A stretch of DNA of 64,000 nucleotides, from the IMG/VR virus record IMGVR_UViG_2936984999_000001, positions 58,815-122,814 of that record. The stretch is one strand, 5' to 3'. The notes under the pieces were generated by a model. The model was not told the DNA's origin. It saw only the letters and a program-made list of their open reading frames with translations, and did not search any database. This DNA comes from a virus (lineage: Duplodnaviria; Caudoviricetes). Numbering within the stretch: the stretch's first letter is position 1; each line of letters opens with the position of its first letter. A program made the position numbers and the translations under genes. This document shows positions 7,546 through 24,300 of this stretch, piece after piece.

Positions 7546-9509
7546 ATGCCTACCTTTAGAGAGATGCAACAACTATATGCGAATATTGGAACGGTTGGTC
7601 AACAGATTAAAAAACAATCTGATGATGCTATGGAAGCGACATGGGATAATTCTATCGCATCAAGGGTTTGTTACATCTATGATTATTATCATGATGACTC
7701 TCCTACTTTGAATAGAAATATTACCTATGGACCATACACAACCAAAACTCGTATTGATGCAAAATTTATTGTCAAATCTTATAGCTCACTGGATAAAGAC
7801 CAGATTGAGTATTATCTACAATTTAAACCAAGTCAGAAGACACAATTCGAACCAACTGATGAACTCTATTATTTTGAAACAGATTACAGACGAAAATACG
7901 GATCAGACGATTTTGTAGGAATGTATTGTGATGTAGCTGATGATCAAGGTATTTATCATAGATGGCTTATCTGTACAAAAGAAATAGGCAATCAGTTTGT
8001 CAAATATAATATTCTTCCATGTGATTATTGGTTTCATTTTATTGTAAAGAAAAACGGTAAACGGTATAAACGGAAAATTTGGGGAGTGACGAGGACACAA
8101 TCCTCGTACAACAGCGGATCTGTTACATGGTCCTTCCCATTAGAAATAAGGGGAAATCTATCCTTTGAATTGCTGGAAATTCCTAAAGACAATTAAACTA
8201 CAACGCAAGTATGAAATATAACTAACCGTGAATGTGGCGAAAGCAGAAAAAATTAATTGTATGAGAACGAGGTTAAAACCCCTGTTCTCTTTTTTAATGG
8301 AAAATCAGCAGCGAAGCCTCGAATAGAGGAACGTTCAACGACTAAGCTACCTAAGTAGGTACTGTGGAGGACATCCGAAAGGATGAAGATATAGTCTGAA
8401 CTTCTTTCGAAAGAAAGAGAAAACCGAAAGGTCTTATTTGAATTAACGAATCAAATAAGTAACGCATTTGTATGGACTGATAAGTAATTGTCCACTGCAT
8501 TTGGAAACTGTGCAGTGAATTTCTTCTAATTGCTGGAAACTCTTTAGAAATTTGTAAACTACAACGCAAGCATGAAAAATGGCTAATCGTGAATGTTAAA
8601 AATTACAAATATTAGATAATCAGCAGCCAAGACTCGAATAGAGTAAGGTTCATCGACTATTATGTAGGACAAGTGTCCGAAATGGAGAACACCTAAACCA
8701 CAAGGCATGGTGAAGATATAGTCAGCACTTCATATGAGAATATGAGAAAAGCATTCGTGCTCTTTTGCAGCTTAACGAACTGTAAAAGTAACATAAGGTA
8801 TTACTCTACTTCCACTGAGAGCCAGTTTAAGGCAATCGTTCCGTTAAATCCAATTACCGAAGATATCTACTATGTAGAAGAAGACAATAAAAATATGCGT
8901 ATAATCATTTCTGCACCTGTAGAAAAACCAAATGTATTCCAGATAAGTAAAGTTGAAACAGCTCCACTATTTGGATTAAAGAGACTTACTTTTGCACAGG
9001 ATAAATTTGATCCTTATACAGATGGTAGAGATGATGTTGAAATTGCTCAAGGCGACATTTTTGCTATGTATGCAGATTTATATGACAATGAAGTACCTAC
9101 TGATACTCCATTCCATACAGATAGTGAGATAAAAATGGATACTATTCATTGTGATTTATCATGTAATGCCAATAAGATTAAGATTGGCGGTAGTTATAAG
9201 TTAATTACTGCAAAATTCTTTAATATACAGGGAAGTGAAATTACAGATGAATTTATTCCATATTTAGCAAAAAGCAGCTGGTCATGTTATGTAAAAAATA
9301 ATAGACATGAAGACCCAGATGAAATCGAAGTCACAGATAATACTGATTTAATCACCTGGCTAGAACAAAAAGAAAGCAATAAAATTAAAATTAAAATAGC
9401 AGACAATAAAGAGTATTTAACGAAAATTCTTGTAATTAAATGCTCTATAAATAAAAATGGAAGAAATATTGTTGGAGAAATTCAACTTCAAATTTCATCC
9501 GTATTATAA
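7546..9509 (+). CDS. Head closure/neck-type protein, spliced: join(7546..8119,8471..8481,8799..9509), about 431 aa
   Basis: Removing two group I introns restores one frame reading ...SSYNSG-LWTD-YYSTSTESQF...; function inferred from position. Confidence 0.75.
8120..8470 (+). ncRNA. Group I intron (351 nt, no ORF)
   Basis: P AATTGCTGGAAA 8168, Q AATCAGCAG 8303, R GTTCAACGACTA 8333, S AAGATATAGTC 8386; P1 exon GGAU with GUCC (8130-8133); terminal G8470; P10 catg/tatg. Confidence 0.88.
8482..8798 (+). ncRNA. Group I intron (317 nt, no ORF)
   Basis: P 8528, Q 8618, R GTTCATCGACTA 8648, S AAGATATAGTC 8713; P10 agtaat/attact; terminal G8798. The 5' site could alternatively be after 8478, which is also in frame. 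Confidence 0.85.
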
Positions 9510-15301: not shown

Positions 15302-18300
15302 ATGCCTAATGAAGATTTTAGTATAAAAACTGGTATAGAGGTTGATGATAGTGGAGTCAGCCAATTAAAAAGTATTGCTGATGAGCTTGAAAAAACAGCG
15401 AAAGCTTTACAGAAAATTAATAACGTAAAATTTAATGGTGATATTTTCTCTGGGTTGACAAATGCAGGAAAAAATATTCAAAACGTCACTAAAGAGATTG
15501 ATAAATTACAGAAGTCTGCCAATGGTGCTGGAAAACCATTAACCAACATTGGAAAAGGCGCAGAAAGTATTGTTTCAGGAAACTCAAAGCAGTTTACATT
15601 ATTAGATTTAACTTCTATTGATGTAATTAAATCAAGTATGAGTGAAATTGCTGCTTCTGCTCAAAATCTTAAAGAAGCATTAGGATCAGAAGTTACTTCC
15701 GGATTAATGACTCAGATTGATGCTATGTTGGCGAAAAAAGATGAGTTACAGAATCTTGCGAATATTTTAAAAAGCAATAAGGAAGATTTAGGTAAAGCTG
15801 CGAAAGCAACTGGAAGTAGTAATAAAAAATCTGCAAATAACACATCATCTTCCACTTCTACTAAAACCCCAAAATATATAACTGATCAGTCTTATGTTGG
15901 TGATTATAAGACACTTGCAGATAATGAAGCTTTTGTTCATACTCTTAGTACGTTTAGACATAATACAACAGAAGCTCAAGCCGCCATAGAAGAACGAAAT
16001 AAAGTTATGGCAAGAGTAAACGCAAAAACACCACAGAACACTTCTGAAATAAATGCAAAGCAGAGATTTGATGATATTGATAAGACTATCACAGACAATC
16101 TTAGTAAATACGGAGATCGAATTCAGAGCGCTTATAATGCTTTCGACAAGATAAAGGCTGACAAAAGTGGCATCGCTGGAATTGAAGATGTATTTAAATC
16201 CAGTGAAGAACAGATAAACAAATGGGCTACTGCTGTCGCAAAAGGCAAAATGAGCATTGGTGAATTTGAGAAGAAAGTCAGTGGGCTAAGTGGATCTGTT
16301 GGCAGTATTGGTAAAATCATCGATCCTGCAAGTATTACAGATGCAAAAGGTGAATTGGAAAGTTATCTAAGAGAGCTTACCAATGTACAGGATATTACCT
16401 TTAGTGGATTTACAGAAAAAAATGGAATTGTTTCACTCAAAGGTACATTTAAGGATAGTGCCGGTGAAGCGCAGACTTTAAGTGTTCAATTAAATACACT
16501 GAATGGACAGATTAAAAATCTTGGAACTTCTGTAAAACCTGTTGAAAGTGGACTTAGCAAATTCTTCTCAGGTTGGAAAGAAAAAATGGTAAACCTTGCC
16601 CAATATTTGACTTCATTCCAGGCAATGAATCAAGTTTGGAATACGTTCAAACAAGGTTTAGAAATAGTTAAAGAGTTTGATACTGCTCTTACAGAAATGC
16701 GAAAAGTATCAGATGAGCCGATCAGTAAGCTAAAAGAATTCCAAAAGGAAAGCTTTGATATGGCAAAGAGCGTTGGTACTACTGCTCTGCAGATCCAGAA
16801 TAGTACGGCCGATTTCATGCGTTTGGGACAGAGCATGGAAGAGGCAAAGCAGTCCAGTATGAATGCTAATATTTTAAAGAATGTTTCGGAATTCGATAAT
16901 GTCGATGATGCAACTTCTGCACTAATTTCTATGCAAGCCGCATATAAAGACTTAACACAAACAGAATTAATTGACAAACTAGACAATATTGGAAACCGGT
17001 ATGCTGTAGCTACTGACGAGCTTGCAACTGGTTTACAGAAATCCGGTGCTACGCTCAGTTTAATGGGAAATAATATTGATGAATCCGTGGCGTTATTAAC
17101 TGCAGCGAACAGTCAGATTCAGAATATTGATACCGTGGCAGCCGGGGAAAAAGTAATTTCTTTGCGTATCGCAGGTAGGTTATGCCTGAACATACTGGAA
17201 GGTATGGGTGAATATTTATATTTACTGGTTGATAACTATATCGGTGGAGGTCTGGGGACAGATAATACCGAGGTAAGACCTATATTTATATAGGAAACCG
17301 TAACGACTGCAGGATGTGTGTGGTAACACATGTGTTGAAGTTATCCGTCCTTTTTCTATAAGGATGTAATATACAGTCTGAACAGCCGAAAGGCTCTTTT
17401 ACATTTCTTAGTGTAATCGTCACGCAATAATCCAAAATTTTATGAAACGTGAGACATAGGTAGAAATTCCTATGCGCCATATTTATATGGTTGGTAAGGT
17501 TTGTGATAAACCTGAAAGTAACAACTTGACAGAAGAAGCAAAGAAAGAACTTGAAGAGCTTGGTGAAGACACATCTGACTATGTTGTCGCAACTAAGGCA
17601 AAGAAGCAACAAATTATTAAGGATTATACTGCCGTAGCTTCTAATGGTGGAAAAGGTGTAGATATTCTTGATGCGAATGGTAACTATAAAAACATGTTCG
17701 AGATCATGAATGAAATCGGTTCAATCTACGCAGAATTACAAGCCGAAGATAAAAAGTATGGCGAAAATCGAAGTATGGCACTTATCGAAGAGTTAGCCGG
17801 TTCTAACCACAGTTTTAGCCGGATTATGTAGAAATGCATAATTAGAACATATTTAATTGCAGGTAAAGCCTTATGCTTTGCACCACAATAATGGAGAAAT
17901 CACATTATGAAGGTTTAAAAACACAAAGATTGGCAGATCTGCAGCGAAGCACCCTAACGTATTCCGTAGATCGTACGGTACTTGAGCCGAGGGTGAACGT
18001 TCACAGACTATTCCCATATAGGGAATCAGAAATATCATTATTCGATGATTATAAAATAAAGGTGGAAATCCTGAATATCTGATTCATTAGAAGTACGGCG
18101 TAATCGCAAATGACGTTGGTGAAAAGCCATTAAATGGAAACGGTATGCTTGCTGCTCTTTTGGGCGTGAGTAAGAAATAGTCGAAACTGACATGAAGAAT
18201 GTCAGATATTTTTTTGTATGGAGAAAAATTAAAAATGGATAAAAAATTTGATAAAGAATATTCAACACAATGGATTAAAGAAGTTAAGTGGCTTTCATGC

Positions 18301-21300
18301 CATAATGTTCGCTTTACGTTCGTAAAAAGAGATACGAATGGAATAACAATTTATAAATATAAAAAAACACATCAATTATTTTCTGCACTTGCAGAATTTT
18401 ATTGTAGAAATGGAGATTGACATAGTAGTGACAGAATTAAATAATGAAATTGAAAACAAAATATTAGAGTTATTTGATAAGGGATTGAACATAAAAAATA
18501 TCAATAGTGAATTAGGACTTGCTGATGGTGTTGTAACAAAATGTCTAAATAAACACGGAATTACAGATACAGGTTGGAATAACCCATCAAAAAGATATTA
18601 TTCGAAATTAACGGATGAACAAAAAAGAGAAATCGAAGATATGTATAGGGATGGACGACTGAAAGAGATTTTAAATATACATCCTACGTTAGAAAAGAGT
18701 TTTCTATATAATTTAATGTCAAGAAACAAAATAGAAAATGGCAAATATTTCTGGACCGAAGAAGATACAAACTATTTGAGAGATAATATTGGTTTGGGAT
18801 ATGATAAACTTTTTAAATATTTTTCTGGAAGACATACTAAAAAAGCCATAGAAACTAAAGCTAAGAAAATGGGATTAGCAAAACCCCAATATTGGACTGA
18901 AGATGAATTGAATATAATGAGAAAATACTATTCAACTATTCCAAAAGAAGATATTAAAAAACTGCTTCCAAATAGAACATGGAATTCTATCGTATTAAAA
19001 GGTAGTAATTTAAAAATAAAATCTCACCATTACCTTAATGAAAAATATTCTGAAAAAGAAGAGAATTTTATAAAAGAAAATTTTGGTAAGATGACAGATG
19101 CTGAAATTGCAAAAGCTATAGGAAAAACAATCCATGGAGTATGTGATAAAAGGCGTTTACTTGGTTTATATTATTTTGATAAAAATTATTCTAAATATAA
19201 CGATATTTCAAAATTCTTTCGAGCGCATATCTATGATTGGAAAGAAAACTCTATGAAACAATGTAATTATCAATGTATATTTACAGGCTCTAAAGATTAT
19301 GCAATTCACCATATAATAAGTTTCAACACTATTCTCTCAGAATTCTTTTCATATATTGAATCTAAAAATCTTTTAAAATCCAATAATTTAAATGATTACT
19401 CAAAAGAAGAACTTGATAATTTAATAAAAATATTTAATACAGTACACGACAAATATCCACTTGGTATTTGTGTACGAAAAGATATACATAATTTATTCCA
19501 TAATATTTACGGAAGTGGTGGAAACACAAAAGAACAATGGGATATATTTTCAGAAAAATTTTCAAATCATGAATACGACAATTTAATAGCGTAAATTTTT
19601 ATCCATGCAAAAAATATAGAGATGTGTTGCGAACATCTTTTAATAAAATTGAAAAACAGATCCAACGTTGCTTCAGCTATACTTAACAACTATGATTTAT
19701 TAGATAAAGTAAAGTCTGATTCTGAGCAATCTTCTGGAGCGGCACAAGAGGAAAATGAGAAGTATCTTGAAAGTATTGAAGCCTCCATAGCCCAACTTCA
19801 AACACAGCTCCAAGAGCTTGCAACAGTAACAATCAACAGTGATATGTTTAAAGGCGTAATAGATACAGCAACTGCCTTTCTTAACATCGTAACTCAGATC
19901 CTGGATAAACTTCCACTGCTCTCAACAGCAATTGGAGGATTCGCAGGATTTAAACTTTCACAAGCAGGTCTGGGTAAACAGCTTAACATAAACCATAAAG
20001 CTAGTTTCAATTCAAAATTTTATCGTAGTTAAGATGCCCATTTGATATGCTGCTGTCATAATCGCGACAGTTAGTATAGAACTTGTTCAAGATGGTGATT
20101 CGACACCTATTGACAGACCTTTAGCCTTAGAGCTATAAAGCCGAATATCGGAGGAAGCCGTAATCCACATCACTGTGGTACCTTAGTTCTGAAAATGAAT
20201 GAAAGGGATATATTGAAGATGGTAGTTCCGACACGTTAGCAAACACATATGTTTAAATTTACAAAAGTGGATGATAAAATTCACGAATAAAACGCAATTA
20301 TAACAGGAAGAAAGAAATAGAGAGCAGAAAGTTGCAGGTAACAACTCTCCACTCTCTTAAAAGACTAAAAGGAGATTACAAAAATATGAACTAAACTATT
20401 TATTATTTTGGGTGTCATCCTTATAGAATTCTCCAGACATGTCAAATCCTTTCAGAAATCCAAAATGGATGTGAAAGTTTTTCATGTTCTTAGATGGTAT
20501 TCTGCGGATTAACGACCATAGGATTAATAATCCTACAAGAGTTAAAACGAATAGAAATACATCTTCCATATCTCACCTCCTTCCTGTACGAAAGTATCAA
20601 GAAAGAGATTTGATGTTGGGGAGAATCCCATAGAAATGAATATAATATTTAGAGTACTTCATTTTAGACAATCTCATTTCTGGTACAAATTGCGTACCAT
20701 TAATTCAGTACTACATGACGACTGTCAGATATACTGTCGTGCAGCGGATCACAATGTAGACCTGTGACCACAAGTATATCTGACTTTGATTGTAGTATAA
20801 TTGTCCATTTTTGTAAATCCAGAACATATGTGTTTTCATGTAAAAGTGTAGTTTTACAGTTAACGTGCGAGAGGCTGACAAGGCGTATTATGTGTGACGT
20901 TACAACATATAGTACAATATACAGTCCAACCAGGGAAAGCCTGGGTAGCATGATGGGTCGAATAGTATAGATAGAACCGTGAGGTTACTACTCTCCTACT
21001 ACCTGAAATGCACTAACTGCACACATTCACCACGGCTTGCAAACGTGGTGTTTTTATTATTTTATTGAAAAAGAAGGTGAAGATTTTTATGCATATAAAA
21101 ATTTTTGATTGTGATATTTTCATTGATACTCACGAAATATCAATAAGTGATCATTCTGGTGAAAGCAGTTATAATTCATTTAATAAAAAACCTATTGACA
21201 CATGTGTTATTAAAGAAATTATAGAAGAACACTTATTATTTAATACTTCCAAAAGATTTAATGATCTTATTACTCAAGGCGAAGGTTTAATTGCGTAATT

Positions 21301-24300
21301 TCAGAATTAACAGCTGGGTTAACTTTTGAACATTCGATTATACAATTTTTCATACTTTTAATAACTACGTCAAAATTTTCTTCATTTTTATCTAATTTAA
21401 ATCCACATGTTAAATCTCCAATATATACAGAACGTGCAGATGATAAATTAGCCTTCCAAGTATTTCCATTTCGATTTACTATAGTATAAAGGTGAGGTTC
21501 TTTATTTTCATCGAATCCGGCAATAAGAAAATGCATTTCCCCTATTGTGTCGGACTGATTTTCTTTTAGAAATTTATAACTTTCATCACGAACTTTATTT
21601 ACATCCCAATCGTAAAAGTTAGGAAATTCTTTCTGTAAATGGTTATACAAAGGTTTCATTTTATTTAAATCACCGGCAAATCCAATTAATGTATAGTTAT
21701 TTTTCTTCTTTATTTTTGAAATATTATCATAAACAACAGAATTATCTTCAGAATTAACCCATCTTGAGTCCGAACAAGCAGAAATTCTTTTTCTATCTTT
21801 AGATATAGCAGCAATAACTAAGCTCATATTATGCACTCTCCTTATTTTCCAGGTTTCCAAGAATATCCGCAGTTAGCACACCTATTGACAGTTTTATTAG
21901 AACCAAGGAAACCTGTAATCAGACTGTATCCTCTTTGACCTGTAGTAATTTGTGTGCTACCACATTTAGGGCAACGAACGGTATTTTTCTCTTCTTCCTC
22001 TGCCCTCTGCTGTGCTAAATACTCGTCATATCTTTTCTGCGATTCCTCTTCGGCTTTAGCGTTTATAATATTTATTTGATTTGTGTATTTAATGATGTCG
22101 TTCTTTTTGAGATCAATCATTGCTAAAAGAAAATCAGCACTATAATTACCAAAGTCAGTAATACGATCAAATTCTTTTAAATCATCCATATTAGAATCTT
22201 GCATTTCTGTTTTGCATATAGGACATTCGGCAGTCAACGCTTTATCTTCAAAAAGTAATCCTTTATAATCATTTATACTTTTATAAGTCACATTTGGTTC
22301 ATAAAGTAATGAACTTGTATAAGCTTTTGCATCTGTTAGTCTATTTTTATTTTTTGCCATACATGTCTTACAGTAAAAAATTTTCATATTATTAGTCTCC
22401 CTCAATTTTATATAGTTTTATAATGCAAGTATACTACTATATATAAATAAAAACAATGATCTTTAACTACGATAAAGAAAATGGGACATTTAATAATTCT
22501 AAGAATTTGTCTGATGTTAAACAGAGCATTATAGACTTTTTTACAAAAAAACAAGATATAAAAAAGAACTATGTATTAACTGACAAAGATAACGATTTCT
22601 TTAAAAGATTTAGAGAGACATTTTCTAGTGATCAAATATCTGGTAGTAGCGAAAAAGATGTTGCATATGCAAAACAATTAGTAGATCAATATGCAGACCA
22701 GAAACAGGGAATTTATGATCTTATAGAAGCAAAAGGGCTTTTGGGTGTTACGGAAGCCAATTTAGCAGATGCACAATCCACTACTATACAAGGAATGACT
22801 AAGTTCCAGTCTGTTGCAAAATCAGCAGTTACAGCTGTTAAATCTTTTGTCGGTACTCTCGGTAATATGGCAATTGCTATGGCTGCATCATGGGCTATTG
22901 GTAAAGCAATCGAAGGTATTGATTATCTTATTCACTACGATGAAAATATCATCAAAGCTGGACAGGAAGCAAAGGATTCCATTGACAGTACATTTAAAAG
23001 TTTCGAAGAAGGTAAGCAGTCTATCATGGATCTTGGCTCTTCATTTGGCAATCAGACAGAGCAGATAAAAAATACCGGTGATGCAATCGATCAAGTTGCC
23101 GAAAAATATGTAGATCTTCGTAAGGGAGTAAATCAGAATACAAACGAGAATGTATCATTATCTACAGACGAGTATCAGCAATATATTGATCTCAGTAGTA
23201 AGCTTGCTTCTCAGTTTCCTGGTCTGGTAGCAGGTTATGATAGTCAGGGAAATGCTGTATTAAACCTTGCTTCCAATGCAGATAAGGCTGCTGATAGTAT
23301 TCGTAACTTATATGAGGCACAAGTTTCTTCTGCAAATGTTGATATGGGGAAAAATCTACAAGCAACATATGATGGTGTTGTTACACAGACAAGTCAATAT
23401 GCGGAAGATATTCAGAAAAAACGTGATGAACTAGCTCAACTAGATATTGATATTTCTGAGAACAAACGTAGTATTTTAACATATGGAAGTAACAATTTTG
23501 AAGTTCAGAATTTGTATGGCGATAAAGAAAATGTTATTACTGATGTTCTAAAAGAGAACGGATTATACAAAGAGAATACTGGTGATGACGGAAGCATCTG
23601 GAATTTCTATGCTGAAGGTCTTGCTGACAAGTCAGAACAAGAAATAGATAGGATGAACGAACAGATTACAGCTGGTATGGAATCCTATTATTTAACATTG
23701 GAATCTCAGAGAAGTCAACTTCAGAGCGAAATTAATTCCTATGACTTAATGATTGAAGATCAATGGCGTAGCATGGCTCAATCACTTGGAAATTATCTTC
23801 AGACATCAAAATCATTTAATGAGCTTGATGATAGTCTTCAGAGTGCATTTCTGGCTAATATTTCAAATCTTGATTTAACTGCATTAAATGATCCTGATGG
23901 TGAATATAAAGGACAGGTACTTGATTTTCTGTATGGTGAATTTCTTGGGCCAATGTCTCAGTTTAGTACGGATGTACAAGAAAGTCTTGCAAAAGCACTA
24001 CAAATTGATCCTTCTAAATTAACTATTGATGAATACAGGTCGCAAGTTGATGAGGCATTTAAAGATGCTTTTGGAAATGACACAGAGGAAAAGAAAGAAC
24101 TTCAGGAGCGATTCAAAAACGCTTATGGAATTGATTCTTCTATTGAAGATATGGAGGATAATGCATCTCGTCTCAAAGAAGCATATGCAGATTTTCCAAA
24201 TGCCAGTGATTTTATTGACCAGATGCAGACAGGCGATCTGTCAATTGCTGCACAGTTAATTGATAATGGTTCAGTTGATATTAAGAAAGGCACAGATGGA

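Follow-up and report, generated by a model that had tools for sequence, protein, structure and literature searches.

The sunY (nrdD) intron of phage T4, the subject of work by Michel and colleagues in 1990 (Genes Dev 4:777; listed in PMC11417360) and of work in 1992 on a 'remote 3' splice junction', is said to be a cis-splicing intron whose core and 3' junction are over 1 kb apart. Choice of the 3' site reportedly relies on short P9.0 and P10 pairings plus a pairing between core and tail, and the insert is said to be a single homing-endonuclease ORF on the same strand. The locus analyzed here lies in the tail tape measure gene of a large gut phage, within a 64,000-nucleotide stretch of DNA (the window). 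Like sunY, it would be a phage group I intron in which coding sequence separates the core from the 3' splice site by more than 1 kb. Unlike sunY, the insert consists of exchangeable, largely antisense cassettes of 1.4-6.5 kb, a separation that exceeds the 1 kb of sunY-type introns and across which a single precursor would have to run. Moreover, core-tail pairing does not rise above chance, and a 17-bp P10 is the only conserved long-range contact.

Group I introns are also known in the tape measure genes of other phages. TMP-IVS1/2/3 of Bacillus cereus-group prophages are compact IA1/IA2 introns (PMC2504315), and an annotated intron adjoins the phiCD211 tape measure gene. These share with the present intron an in-frame location in tape measure genes of Firmicutes phages, an early intron stop and P1/P10 pairings adapted to the site. 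They carry at most a homing-endonuclease gene, have an ordinary short P10 and are detected by standard models, whereas the intron described here is undetected by Rfam and carries its cargo 3' of the core. Natural P10 helices cover 3' exon nucleotides 2-8 and are weak, with about 6 bp being optimal (PMC6155759). Longer guide pairing to a covalently untethered site is the property of engineered trans-splicing ribozymes with strengthened P10/P9.0 and extended guides (PMC6155759), which are man-made, whereas the intron here would be their equivalent in nature, fixed by evolution. Among naturally trans-spliced mitochondrial group I introns is Prasinoderma Pr.rnl.2, in which the split falls between P9.1 and the 3' end (PMC3873408). 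As in the mitochondrial introns, the break or insertion falls downstream of the P9 region, where the ORFs of cis relatives sit, and two parts must meet through RNA pairing. The mitochondrial exons are found on separate units, often on opposite strands, and their splicing was demonstrated by RT-PCR, whereas in the present case every genome has the exons collinear and the intron is known from its sequence.

The interrupted tape measure gene and its structured RNA

A divergent group I intron spanning 19976-22458 appears to split the tape measure gene at 19975|19976 (Table 1). Both the tblastn matches to tape measure proteins and those to all relatives stop at residue 118 of ORF 19622-20032, which corresponds to nucleotide 19975, and in relatives that lack the upstream intron this exon runs straight on from the preceding exon. 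The last five exon nucleotides, UGGGU (19971-19975), would form the 5' strand of P1, which places the 5' splice site after U19975 at a U-G wobble. P1 has 5/5 pairs in all nine distinct sequences (there is no variation, hence no covariation) and is also predicted by RNAalifold. Joining 19975 to 22459 is in frame, as the former closes a codon and the latter opens one, and rebuilds a continuous tape measure protein; the phiCD211 tape measure protein aligns across this junction. Thus, P1/P10 stacking, reading frame and homology are three independent pointers to a predicted 19975|22459 junction. Unspliced, the reading frame terminates at an in-frame TAA (20030-20032) located within the P10 guide strand. 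All 22 related gut-phage sequences that include the region have the intron, and our searches found neither an intron-less allele nor a junction-spanning protein. In 16/16 contigs that hold both exons, these are collinear on the same strand and 2.4-7.6 kb apart.

Table 1 Features of the tape measure intron and its flanks
Feature	Position	Strand	Details and basis
Upstream tape measure exon	19652..19975	+	108 codons, ends ...GCA GGT CTG GGT; tblastn, relatives
L1 region	19976..20018	+	Internal stem AAACAGCUU / AAGCUAGUUU; indels tolerated in relatives
Extended P10 strand (putative internal guide)	20019..20035	+	Invariant in relatives; complementary to 22459-22476
P1 3' strand GCCCA	20036..20040	+	G20036-U19975 wobble at predicted 5' splice site
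Putative group I core RNA	20041..21027	+	Manual map; conservation, covariation, motif likeness
P2	~20046-20078	+	Manual core map
P2.1	~20083-20116	+	Manual core map
P3	20118-21 / 20880-83	+	Manual core map; P3' AAGG
P4	20130-36 / 20222-28	+	Manual core map
Two core hairpins	20141-51, 20165-78	+	Manual core map
P6	20229-40 / 20859-69	+	Extended by 31-bp stem 20241-71 / 20804-35
Antisense 57-aa ORF within P6 extension	20396..20569	-	Strong Shine-Dalgarno; own minus-strand terminator 20319-20357
P7	20873-77 / 20922-26	+	GGCUG / CAGUC; manual core map
P8	20885-20915	+	Manual core map
P9	20930-44	+	CCAGG-GAAAG-CCUGG; manual map; further hairpins to 21027
J6/7 AGA, J7/3 ACA, J8/7 AAUAUA	core junctions	+	Manual core map
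Last conserved core hairpin + U-run	21028..21058	+	CACCACG-GCUUGCAAA-CGUGGUG; weak, terminator-like
Variable cargo	21059..22418		Other cassettes, 1.4-6.5 kb, in relatives
Cargo ORF	21090-21298	+	Window
Proteasome-like cargo gene	21270-21860	-	Window
Zinc-ribbon cargo gene	21842-22387	-	Window
Conserved intron tail, putative sigma-70-type promoter for antisense cargo	22419..22456	-	Conserved in tails
Candidate terminal G (omega G), 3' splice site 22458|22459	22458	+	G invariant; AU or UU precedes
Exon strand of P10, first 18 nt of downstream exon	22459..22476	+	AUCUUUAACUACGAUAAA; conservation and pairing
Downstream tape measure exon	22459..30609	+	2716 codons

The first ~1083 nt of the intron are a structured RNA and would constitute its catalytic module. 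Core identity is 96-99% in relatives and 77% in one lineage, exceeding the conservation of the exons. Pairing in the core is kept in 99.4% of cells, and compensatory changes are seen in 10 core pairs versus 1.5 in shuffles and 0 when the partners were slid; the variation in P7 is a G-U to A-U change. As Rfam RF00028 gave no match at E<=10 to either 19800-22700 or the 3' half of the core (20856-20960), the group I core was mapped by hand. RF00028 finds the introns at 8112-8419 and 8459-8746 of the same window but misses the compact intron at 17177-17489, which has the common motif, and hence its sensitivity for this subclass is poor. The motif is a J8/7-P7'-P9 arrangement: AAUAUACAGUCC plus a GAAA(G)-loop stem aligns with AAGAUAUAGUC plus a GAAA-loop stem in three Rfam-validated introns of the same genome, and the compact intron also has it in that alignment. 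Elements of the conserved R/S type are recognized by this resemblance, which carries no statistical score. The manual map can accommodate the group I order P3-P4-P5-P6-P7-P3'-P8-P7'-P9 with its P3/P7 pseudoknot and short J6/7, J7/3 and J8/7, but is not fully canonical in that J3/4 (8 nt) and the P5 region are atypical. A second P7-like strand at 20720-24 is disfavored by the variation among relatives.

Pairing of the guide with the 3' exon

The earlier note proposed that the segment directly 5' of the guide nucleotide G20036 is complementary, with a single bulge, to the 18 nt that open the 3' exon. Both its coordinates and its letters were confirmed exactly. The guide strand TTTATCGTAGTTAAGAT (also given as UUUAUCGUAGUUAAGAU) forms 14 contiguous Watson-Crick pairs with ATCTTTAACTACGATAAA, followed by one bulged exon U and three further pairs; an alternative register gives 16 contiguous pairs, two of which are G-U. 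The energy of the P10 duplex is -16.7 kcal/mol versus -6.9 for P1, and among 20,000 randomly drawn pairings of a 70-nt with a 20-nt window of this region, a single one contained an exact complement of at least 14 nt. With the guide adjoining G20036, which pairs with U19975, A22459 would stack beside U19975 in the canonical P1/P10 geometry.

Conservation follows this pairing closely. The guide is unchanged in 22 sequences (the window, 11 IMG/VR loci and 10 metagenome loci) and has no indels, whereas the loop just 5' of it does. Among the seven distinct 3' exon starts compared, the difference per site is 0.032 for nucleotides 1-18 and 0.536 for nucleotides 19-75, such that exon conservation ends exactly where complementarity ends. 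The only two substitutions within exon nucleotides 1-18, A1>G and C3>U, both preserve pairing as G-U. As to guide/exon covariation, the guide is invariant and the exon changes are compatible with wobble pairing, but P10 variation is confined to these two one-sided changes, and no two-sided compensation was found in P10 or P1 among the relatives, both strands being essentially invariant. The other introns had been said to show at most about 4-6 bp. This held roughly: in the four introns tried, whose boundaries were approximate, the intron 5' end was complementary to the 3' exon over 5-9 nt at best, mostly through G-U pairs. A guide role of 20019-20035 in pairing with the 3' exon is therefore well supported by sequence comparison, through the invariant guide, the exon conservation boundary and an in-frame junction that agrees with protein homology.

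Cargo, putative antisense promoter and terminator-like hairpin

The 1.4-6.5 kb that separate the core from the 3' splice site consist entirely of variable cargo, for the most part antisense genes, with breakpoints at about 21058 and 22400. The conserved tail that follows contains a minus-strand promoter motif, with a -35 element TTGTTT (22456-22451), a 17-nt spacer and a -10 element TATACT (22433-22428). TTGnnn-17-TATACT is present in 9/9 distinct tails, where the spacer sequence varies and the spacing is constant, and the motif occurs once in the window. The conserved motif before the 3' splice site is explained by this putative promoter. On the plus strand there is a TATAAT at 22419-22424 that lacks a -35 element, and TATAAT or TATATT always lies 34-36 nt from the terminal G; no convincing plus-strand promoter was found before the 3' exon. 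Beyond P10 there was no conserved core-tail pairing above chance, and a sunY-type pairing of a peripheral core element with the nucleotides before the 3' splice site was not found. Two candidates were tried and rejected: pairing of the loop GCUUGCA with UGCAAGU was no better than chance, and that of the U-run with AAUAAAAACA was no better than chance and was not conserved.

The hairpin and U-run that had been noticed after the core, 1.4 kb before the terminal G, are real, though weak. The hairpin (C21028-G21050) has 7 bp and a loop of GCUUGCAAA, is followed by UUUUUAUUAUUUU and has an energy of -7.8 to -10.4 kcal/mol. Hairpin and loop are invariant in all relatives, and the U-run is lost in the c170129/L050 lineage. 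Read-through is plausible, as the caveat attached to the original observation had it, because the hairpin is weak, at least nine comparable terminator-like sites follow the stop codons of consecutive virion genes in the late operon, plus-strand cargo ORFs that have ribosome-binding sites open 30-60 nt past the hairpin, and no consistent plus-strand terminator was found within the cargo.

Probable splicing across the cargo

We lean towards a remote 3' splice site that is held by the extended P10 and spliced in cis from a continuous late transcript. Cargo cassettes would have been inserted between the last core hairpin and the short 3' tail, leaving the 3' splice site 1.4-6.5 kb away. The guide would join an ordinary short P1 strand, GCCCA, to a P10 strand lengthened to 17 bp which, together with the terminal G, would find and hold the remote site regardless of the intervening cargo. 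The precursor would most likely be a single late transcript that reads past the weak hairpin and U-run as at other operon sites. The strong P10 may also let splicing tolerate nicks or termination within the cargo, and we infer catalysis by the intron, with use of G22458, from the features given above. Besides the missing Rfam match and the lack of two-sided compensation in P10 and P1, other points run counter to this explanation. Ligated exons should leave a 22-bp P1 plus P10 product complex more slowly, and opposed transcription of the cargo, from a promoter abutting the 3' splice site, could hinder a continuous precursor.

A 17-bp P10 that is invariant down to synonymous sites despite diverged exons and cargo would indicate that selection can tune guide length for a distant 3' splice site. 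It would also give a simple mechanistic reason why the intron of an essential virion gene can host kilobases of exchangeable, often antisense genes, and would parallel in nature the extended guides that are engineered into therapeutic trans-splicing ribozymes. The locus offers a testable system for how far, and over what interruptions, a group I ribozyme reaches, and for whether cis introns pass through a split-tolerant state on the way to trans-splicing.

It is unlikely, though worth stating, that the intron works part-time as a natural two-piece ribozyme. A 5' RNA of exon plus ribozyme would end at the hairpin and U-run, or be cut where antisense cargo mRNAs form double-stranded RNA with the precursor, and its 17-bp guide would capture in trans a second RNA starting ~27 nt before the terminal G, after which the two would be ligated. 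The P10 is indeed about three times the length found in natural cis introns and is reminiscent of the strengthened P10 from which engineered trans-splicing ribozymes benefit (PMC6155759), and a split downstream of P9.1 is known from natural trans-spliced group I introns (PMC3873408). The cargo between the halves is unconstrained and convergently transcribed. However, the exons keep their order and strand in every contig that holds both. Although the hairpin and U-run mark the precise end of the conserved module in most relatives, the terminator is weak, of a type read through elsewhere in the operon and without its U-run in one lineage, and the plus-strand cargo ORFs depend on read-through. 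Likewise, the TATAAT/TATATT at its fixed distance from the terminal G has neither a -35 element nor a TG extension, does not recur in the phage and lies inside the conserved minus-strand promoter region; the lack of additional conserved core-tail pairing above chance also argues against two pieces. Hence, separately transcribed halves are not indicated, and the suggestion in the earlier note of trans capture of a separate 3' exon RNA gained no positive support from the collinear exons, the weak terminator, the cargo ORFs and the minus-strand promoter. If true, the two-piece arrangement would make this the first trans-splicing group I intron in nature that does not belong to an organelle, and would explain free cargo swapping without loss of an essential gene.

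Much less probable still is that the inverted repeat acts on DNA, as an operator or upstream element of the antisense promoter or as a site of recombination or inversion, with the complementarity to the guide being incidental. The exon arm does fall roughly between -38 and -58 relative to the conserved minus-strand promoter, but no promoter lies in the matching position beside the left arm, which instead abuts the P1 strand with the exact polarity and register for P10. Cargo between the arms is exchanged among relatives; however, its breakpoints are away from the arms, the segment is inverted in no relative and no recombinase is present among the cargo genes.

That there is no splicing, the tape measure function being supplied by separate polypeptides or the gene being broken, is hardly credible: Rfam gives no match and the downstream ORF opens with ATG or TTG in all relatives, but this codon is unlikely to be a start because no Shine-Dalgarno sequence was found upstream of it, while neighboring cargo genes have strong ones, and the arrangement is constant across many phage genomes of 95-100% completeness, with a structured covarying RNA conserved above the coding exons and a P1/P10 geometry that is in frame.

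The split tape measure gene

The source contig from IMG/VR (122.8 kb, estimated to be ~55% complete), the last 64 kb of which form the window, carries a plus-strand block of virion genes, and Rfam finds group I introns at 8112-8419 and 8459-8746 plus a third outside the window. ORF 19622-20032 resembles the N-terminal region of phage tape measure proteins (Clostridioides, Enterocloster, Enterococcus and Bacillus phages), and ORF 22456-30609 (2717 aa) encodes the remainder of the protein. The 2.4 kb that separates them contains three minus-strand ORFs. All homologue matches to the upstream ORF end at residue 118 (nt 19975), the 19975|22459 junction is in frame, and the joined product aligns with the phiCD211 tape measure protein across that junction. 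Hence, the predicted intron is 19976-22458 and the predicted spliced RNA junction is GCAGGTCTGGGT|ATCTTTAACTACGATAAA. The downstream ORF is not preceded by a Shine-Dalgarno sequence; strong ones are found on the adjacent genes within the intron. Tape measure genes are already known to carry group I introns (PMC2504315), and the phiCD211 annotation likewise places one beside its tape measure gene.

The intron was compared among relatives on 11 IMG/VR contigs and 12 human-gut metagenome contigs. All 22 sequences covering the region have the intron, with lengths of 2,454-7,594 nt. No intron-less allele was found: a junction DNA pattern had no match in IMG/VR, and the junction peptide, searched against protein clusters of proteins up to 2000 aa, matched 205 clusters, the best 120 of which cover one side or the other only. 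Unlike this intron, the endonuclease-bearing intron upstream (17802-19651) is optional, its flanking exons forming one continuous ORF (...ISG|KNR...) in many relatives (protein P0013 and other 278-298-aa proteins). In the upstream exon the last ~60 codons (19795-19975) are almost invariant among relatives and the first ~45 vary, a gradient toward the intron that is as expected from co-conversion or from exon end and core moving as one module. On the 3' side conservation is limited to 18 nt.

Pairing of the internal guide with the 3' exon

The 17-bp complementarity with one bulge that the earlier note claimed between guide and 3' exon was confirmed in coordinates and pairs: TTTATCGTAGTTAAGAT (20019-20035) matches ATCTTTAACTACGATAAA (22459-22476) by 14 exact pairs, a bulged U and 3 further pairs (-16.7 kcal/mol). 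Fourteen exact pairs arise once per 20,000 random window pairs drawn from the same region. The P10 guide strand ends at U20035. The next base, G20036, opens GCCCA, the pairing partner of the exon end UGGGU (19971-75), and forms the U-G wobble with U19975; the exon strand of P10 begins immediately after G22458. This layout of P1, P10 and terminal G is canonical, and the placement weighs more than the length of the duplex.

All 22 sequences have an identical guide, TTTATCGTAGTTAAGATGCCCA, and in relatives the loop immediately upstream of it has 7-20 nt deletions. The downstream exon occurs in seven distinct versions, which differ at 0.032 per site over nt 1-18 and at 0.536 over nt 19-75; the sole changes within nt 1-18 (A1>G and C3>U) each convert a Watson-Crick pair to G-U. 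Thus, synonymous sites are frozen over exactly the length of the duplex, and these comparisons give strong evidence that selection acts on guide/exon pairing. In the covariation check proposed for homologues, the one-sided changes keep pairing through wobbles, and two-sided compensation was absent from the 22 sequences because the guide never varies; the 12 metagenome loci, taken as more distant relatives, all have this guide. Both the P10 length and the strength of the selection acting on it are new.

A distant relative (MT835469.1, 6334-9892), whose upstream exon is ~35% identical, has a ~3.5-kb gap in the gene directly behind the homologous Gly codon (GGT), with the same plus-then-minus gene layout. 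Neither a long guide-exon pairing nor an Rfam match was found there and its 3' splice site could not be fixed; it carries a canonical-looking AAUCCGCAGG element.

Intron core, cargo genes and tail

Over the first ~1083 nt of the intron (19976-21058), identity is 96-99% for most relatives and 77% for one lineage, c170129/L050; the exons are far less conserved (46-82% protein identity). RNAalifold and pair counts indicate a highly structured RNA. A core map was made by hand, and its 86 proposed pairs are paired in 99.4% of cells, with compensatory changes at 10 pairs; shuffles gave 1.5 +/- 1.1 such pairs and sliding the partners gave none. J8/7-P7'-P9 aligns with that stretch in three Rfam-validated introns and in the compact intron at 17177-17489. 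Atypical parts of the map are J3/4 and P5. The Rfam model gave no match in 19800-22700 even at E<=10, nor for the 3' half of the core, which we read as limited sensitivity because the model also misses (at E<=1) the compact intron, which has the same motif. The intron is very probably group I. A group II intron was rejected, since the 5' end lacks GUGYG, a domain V is missing and Rfam gave no match.

Elements of the predicted intron core and the candidate promoter of the intron tail (window coordinates)
Element	Position	Strand	Sequence	Remarks
P2, P2.1				both covary
P3			CCUU/AAGG	
P4			GAGCUAU/GUAGUUC	followed by J4/5 AAA
P6	20229-40 / 20859-69			extended by 31-bp stem enclosing antisense 57-aa ORF
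J6/7			AGA	
P7	20873-77 (5' strand)		GGCUG/CAGUC	G-U to A-U in c170129
J7/3			ACA	
P8				covaries
J8/7			AAUAUA	
P9			CCAGG-GAAAG-CCUGG	two compensatory pairs
Additional hairpins	up to 21052			
Sigma-70-type promoter	22419-22456	minus	TTGnnn-17-TATACT	all 9 distinct tails; same place in relatives' loci L007-L017, L044-L052

The compact element, which lies in the same gene and is ORF-less, contains GACUG...AAUAUACAGUC, and its P9 is capped by a GAAA loop. A GACUG at 20720-24, like the R element of that intron, was considered as the P7 5' strand; the sequence variation supports a hairpin that includes it, c170129 has it disrupted, and GGCUG is preferred. The surrounding ACGACUGUCAGAUAUAC (20718-20735) is very like ACGACUGCAGGAUGUG, the P7 region of the compact intron, yet sits inside the covarying hairpin, and could be left over from a duplicated or nested core. 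The 57-aa ORF in the P6 extension (20396-20569, minus strand), which runs antisense to the intron RNA over its whole length, encodes a hydrophobic then basic peptide. With its strong Shine-Dalgarno sequence (GGAGGTG), long structured leader and strong terminator (20319-20357, minus strand, -22 kcal/mol), the cassette looks type I toxin-like or like a small membrane peptide gene.

Beyond 21058 the relatives have in common only paralogous cargo genes, plus-strand ORFs followed by minus-strand genes, which encode proteasome-like proteins (Ntn hydrolase), several zinc-ribbon paralogues, DUF2513, a retropepsin-like aspartyl protease and unknowns. Cargo sets vary between relatives (e.g., loci L018:7461-8222, L019:7620-8762 and L027:7774-9300). 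The association of a long P10 with freely exchanged, largely antisense cargo is new. An invertible segment was rejected, as the cargo proteins include no recombinase and no relative has the segment inverted.

The last ~40 nt of the intron are conserved (TATAWTGCAAGTATA...CAA..TG). On the minus strand the tabulated promoter motif, its spacer constant in length and variable in sequence, precedes a short leader, then GGAGG and the gene that opens the cargo on that strand. This motif is the predicted promoter of the antisense cargo, its -35 element lying 2-4 nt from the 3' splice site, and its presence there would explain the conservation of the tail. Two core-tail contacts were tried. A 10-bp closing helix between the U-run UGUUUUUAUU (21049-58) and the A-rich tail AAUAAAAACA (22445-54) was not above a same-cargo null (fraction 0.13) and is absent in most lineages, a strong version occurring only in the 160085/29194 lineage. 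The other contact, in which the terminal hairpin loop would dock on the tail (GCUUGCA/UGCAAGU, 7 bp), has ~50 equal-length matches in this AT-rich RNA, and both strands contain the palindrome UGCA. RNAduplex of tail against core gave only spurious large-loop structures. As neither contact was better than chance, P10 is the sole conserved long-range contact, and this too is new.

Cis or trans splicing

The earlier note described a hairpin plus U-run after the core and read the long guide as locating a distant 3' splice site in cis or capturing a separate 3' exon RNA in trans. The hairpin and U-run are present as described, and the hairpin belongs to the conserved RNA module because stem and loop are invariant in relatives. 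Some points would suit trans-splicing, the less likely reading: natural P10 helices are short and weak, engineered ribozymes benefit from a stronger P10 when a 3' site has to be recognised in trans (PMC6155759), and organelles have natural trans-spliced group I introns whose break can lie downstream of P9.1 (PMC3873408). The precursor might also be cut as a result of convergent antisense transcription, in which case a 17-bp tether would allow ligation all the same. However, the exons are collinear in all 16 contigs holding both, the hairpin energy is just -7.8 to -10.4 kcal/mol, and the U-run is missing in c170129/L050. The caveat that many terminators make read-through plausible held up: the same scan found at least nine comparable sites directly behind the stop codons in a row of consecutive virion genes, and further ones within other introns, so reading through such signals is normal for this operon. 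The plus-strand ORFs of the cargo, which have ribosome-binding sites, begin 30-60 nt past the hairpin, which leaves no room for a working promoter, and no consistent plus-strand terminator was found further into the cargo. A plus-strand TATAAT 34-36 nt before the terminal G, unique in the window, has no -35 element and overlaps the minus-strand promoter region.

Taken together, these observations make a continuous precursor spliced in cis the more economical reading. A remote 3' splice site is already known from the T4 sunY intron, which is spliced from a continuous precursor. Conservation favors the guide as the means of locating the distant 3' site, and separate RNAs are disfavored by the collinear exons and weak terminator.

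No further 3' acceptor exon within two mismatches of the guide was found in the source contig or five 95-100% complete relatives, the one same-strand candidate being intergenic. A second guide-complementary site lies inside the proteasome-like gene (21362-21379; 16/18 matches, -13.6 kcal/mol) and is limited to three contigs having the same version of that gene. Its register is wrong for splicing, and the complementarity may be chance or a weak decoy.
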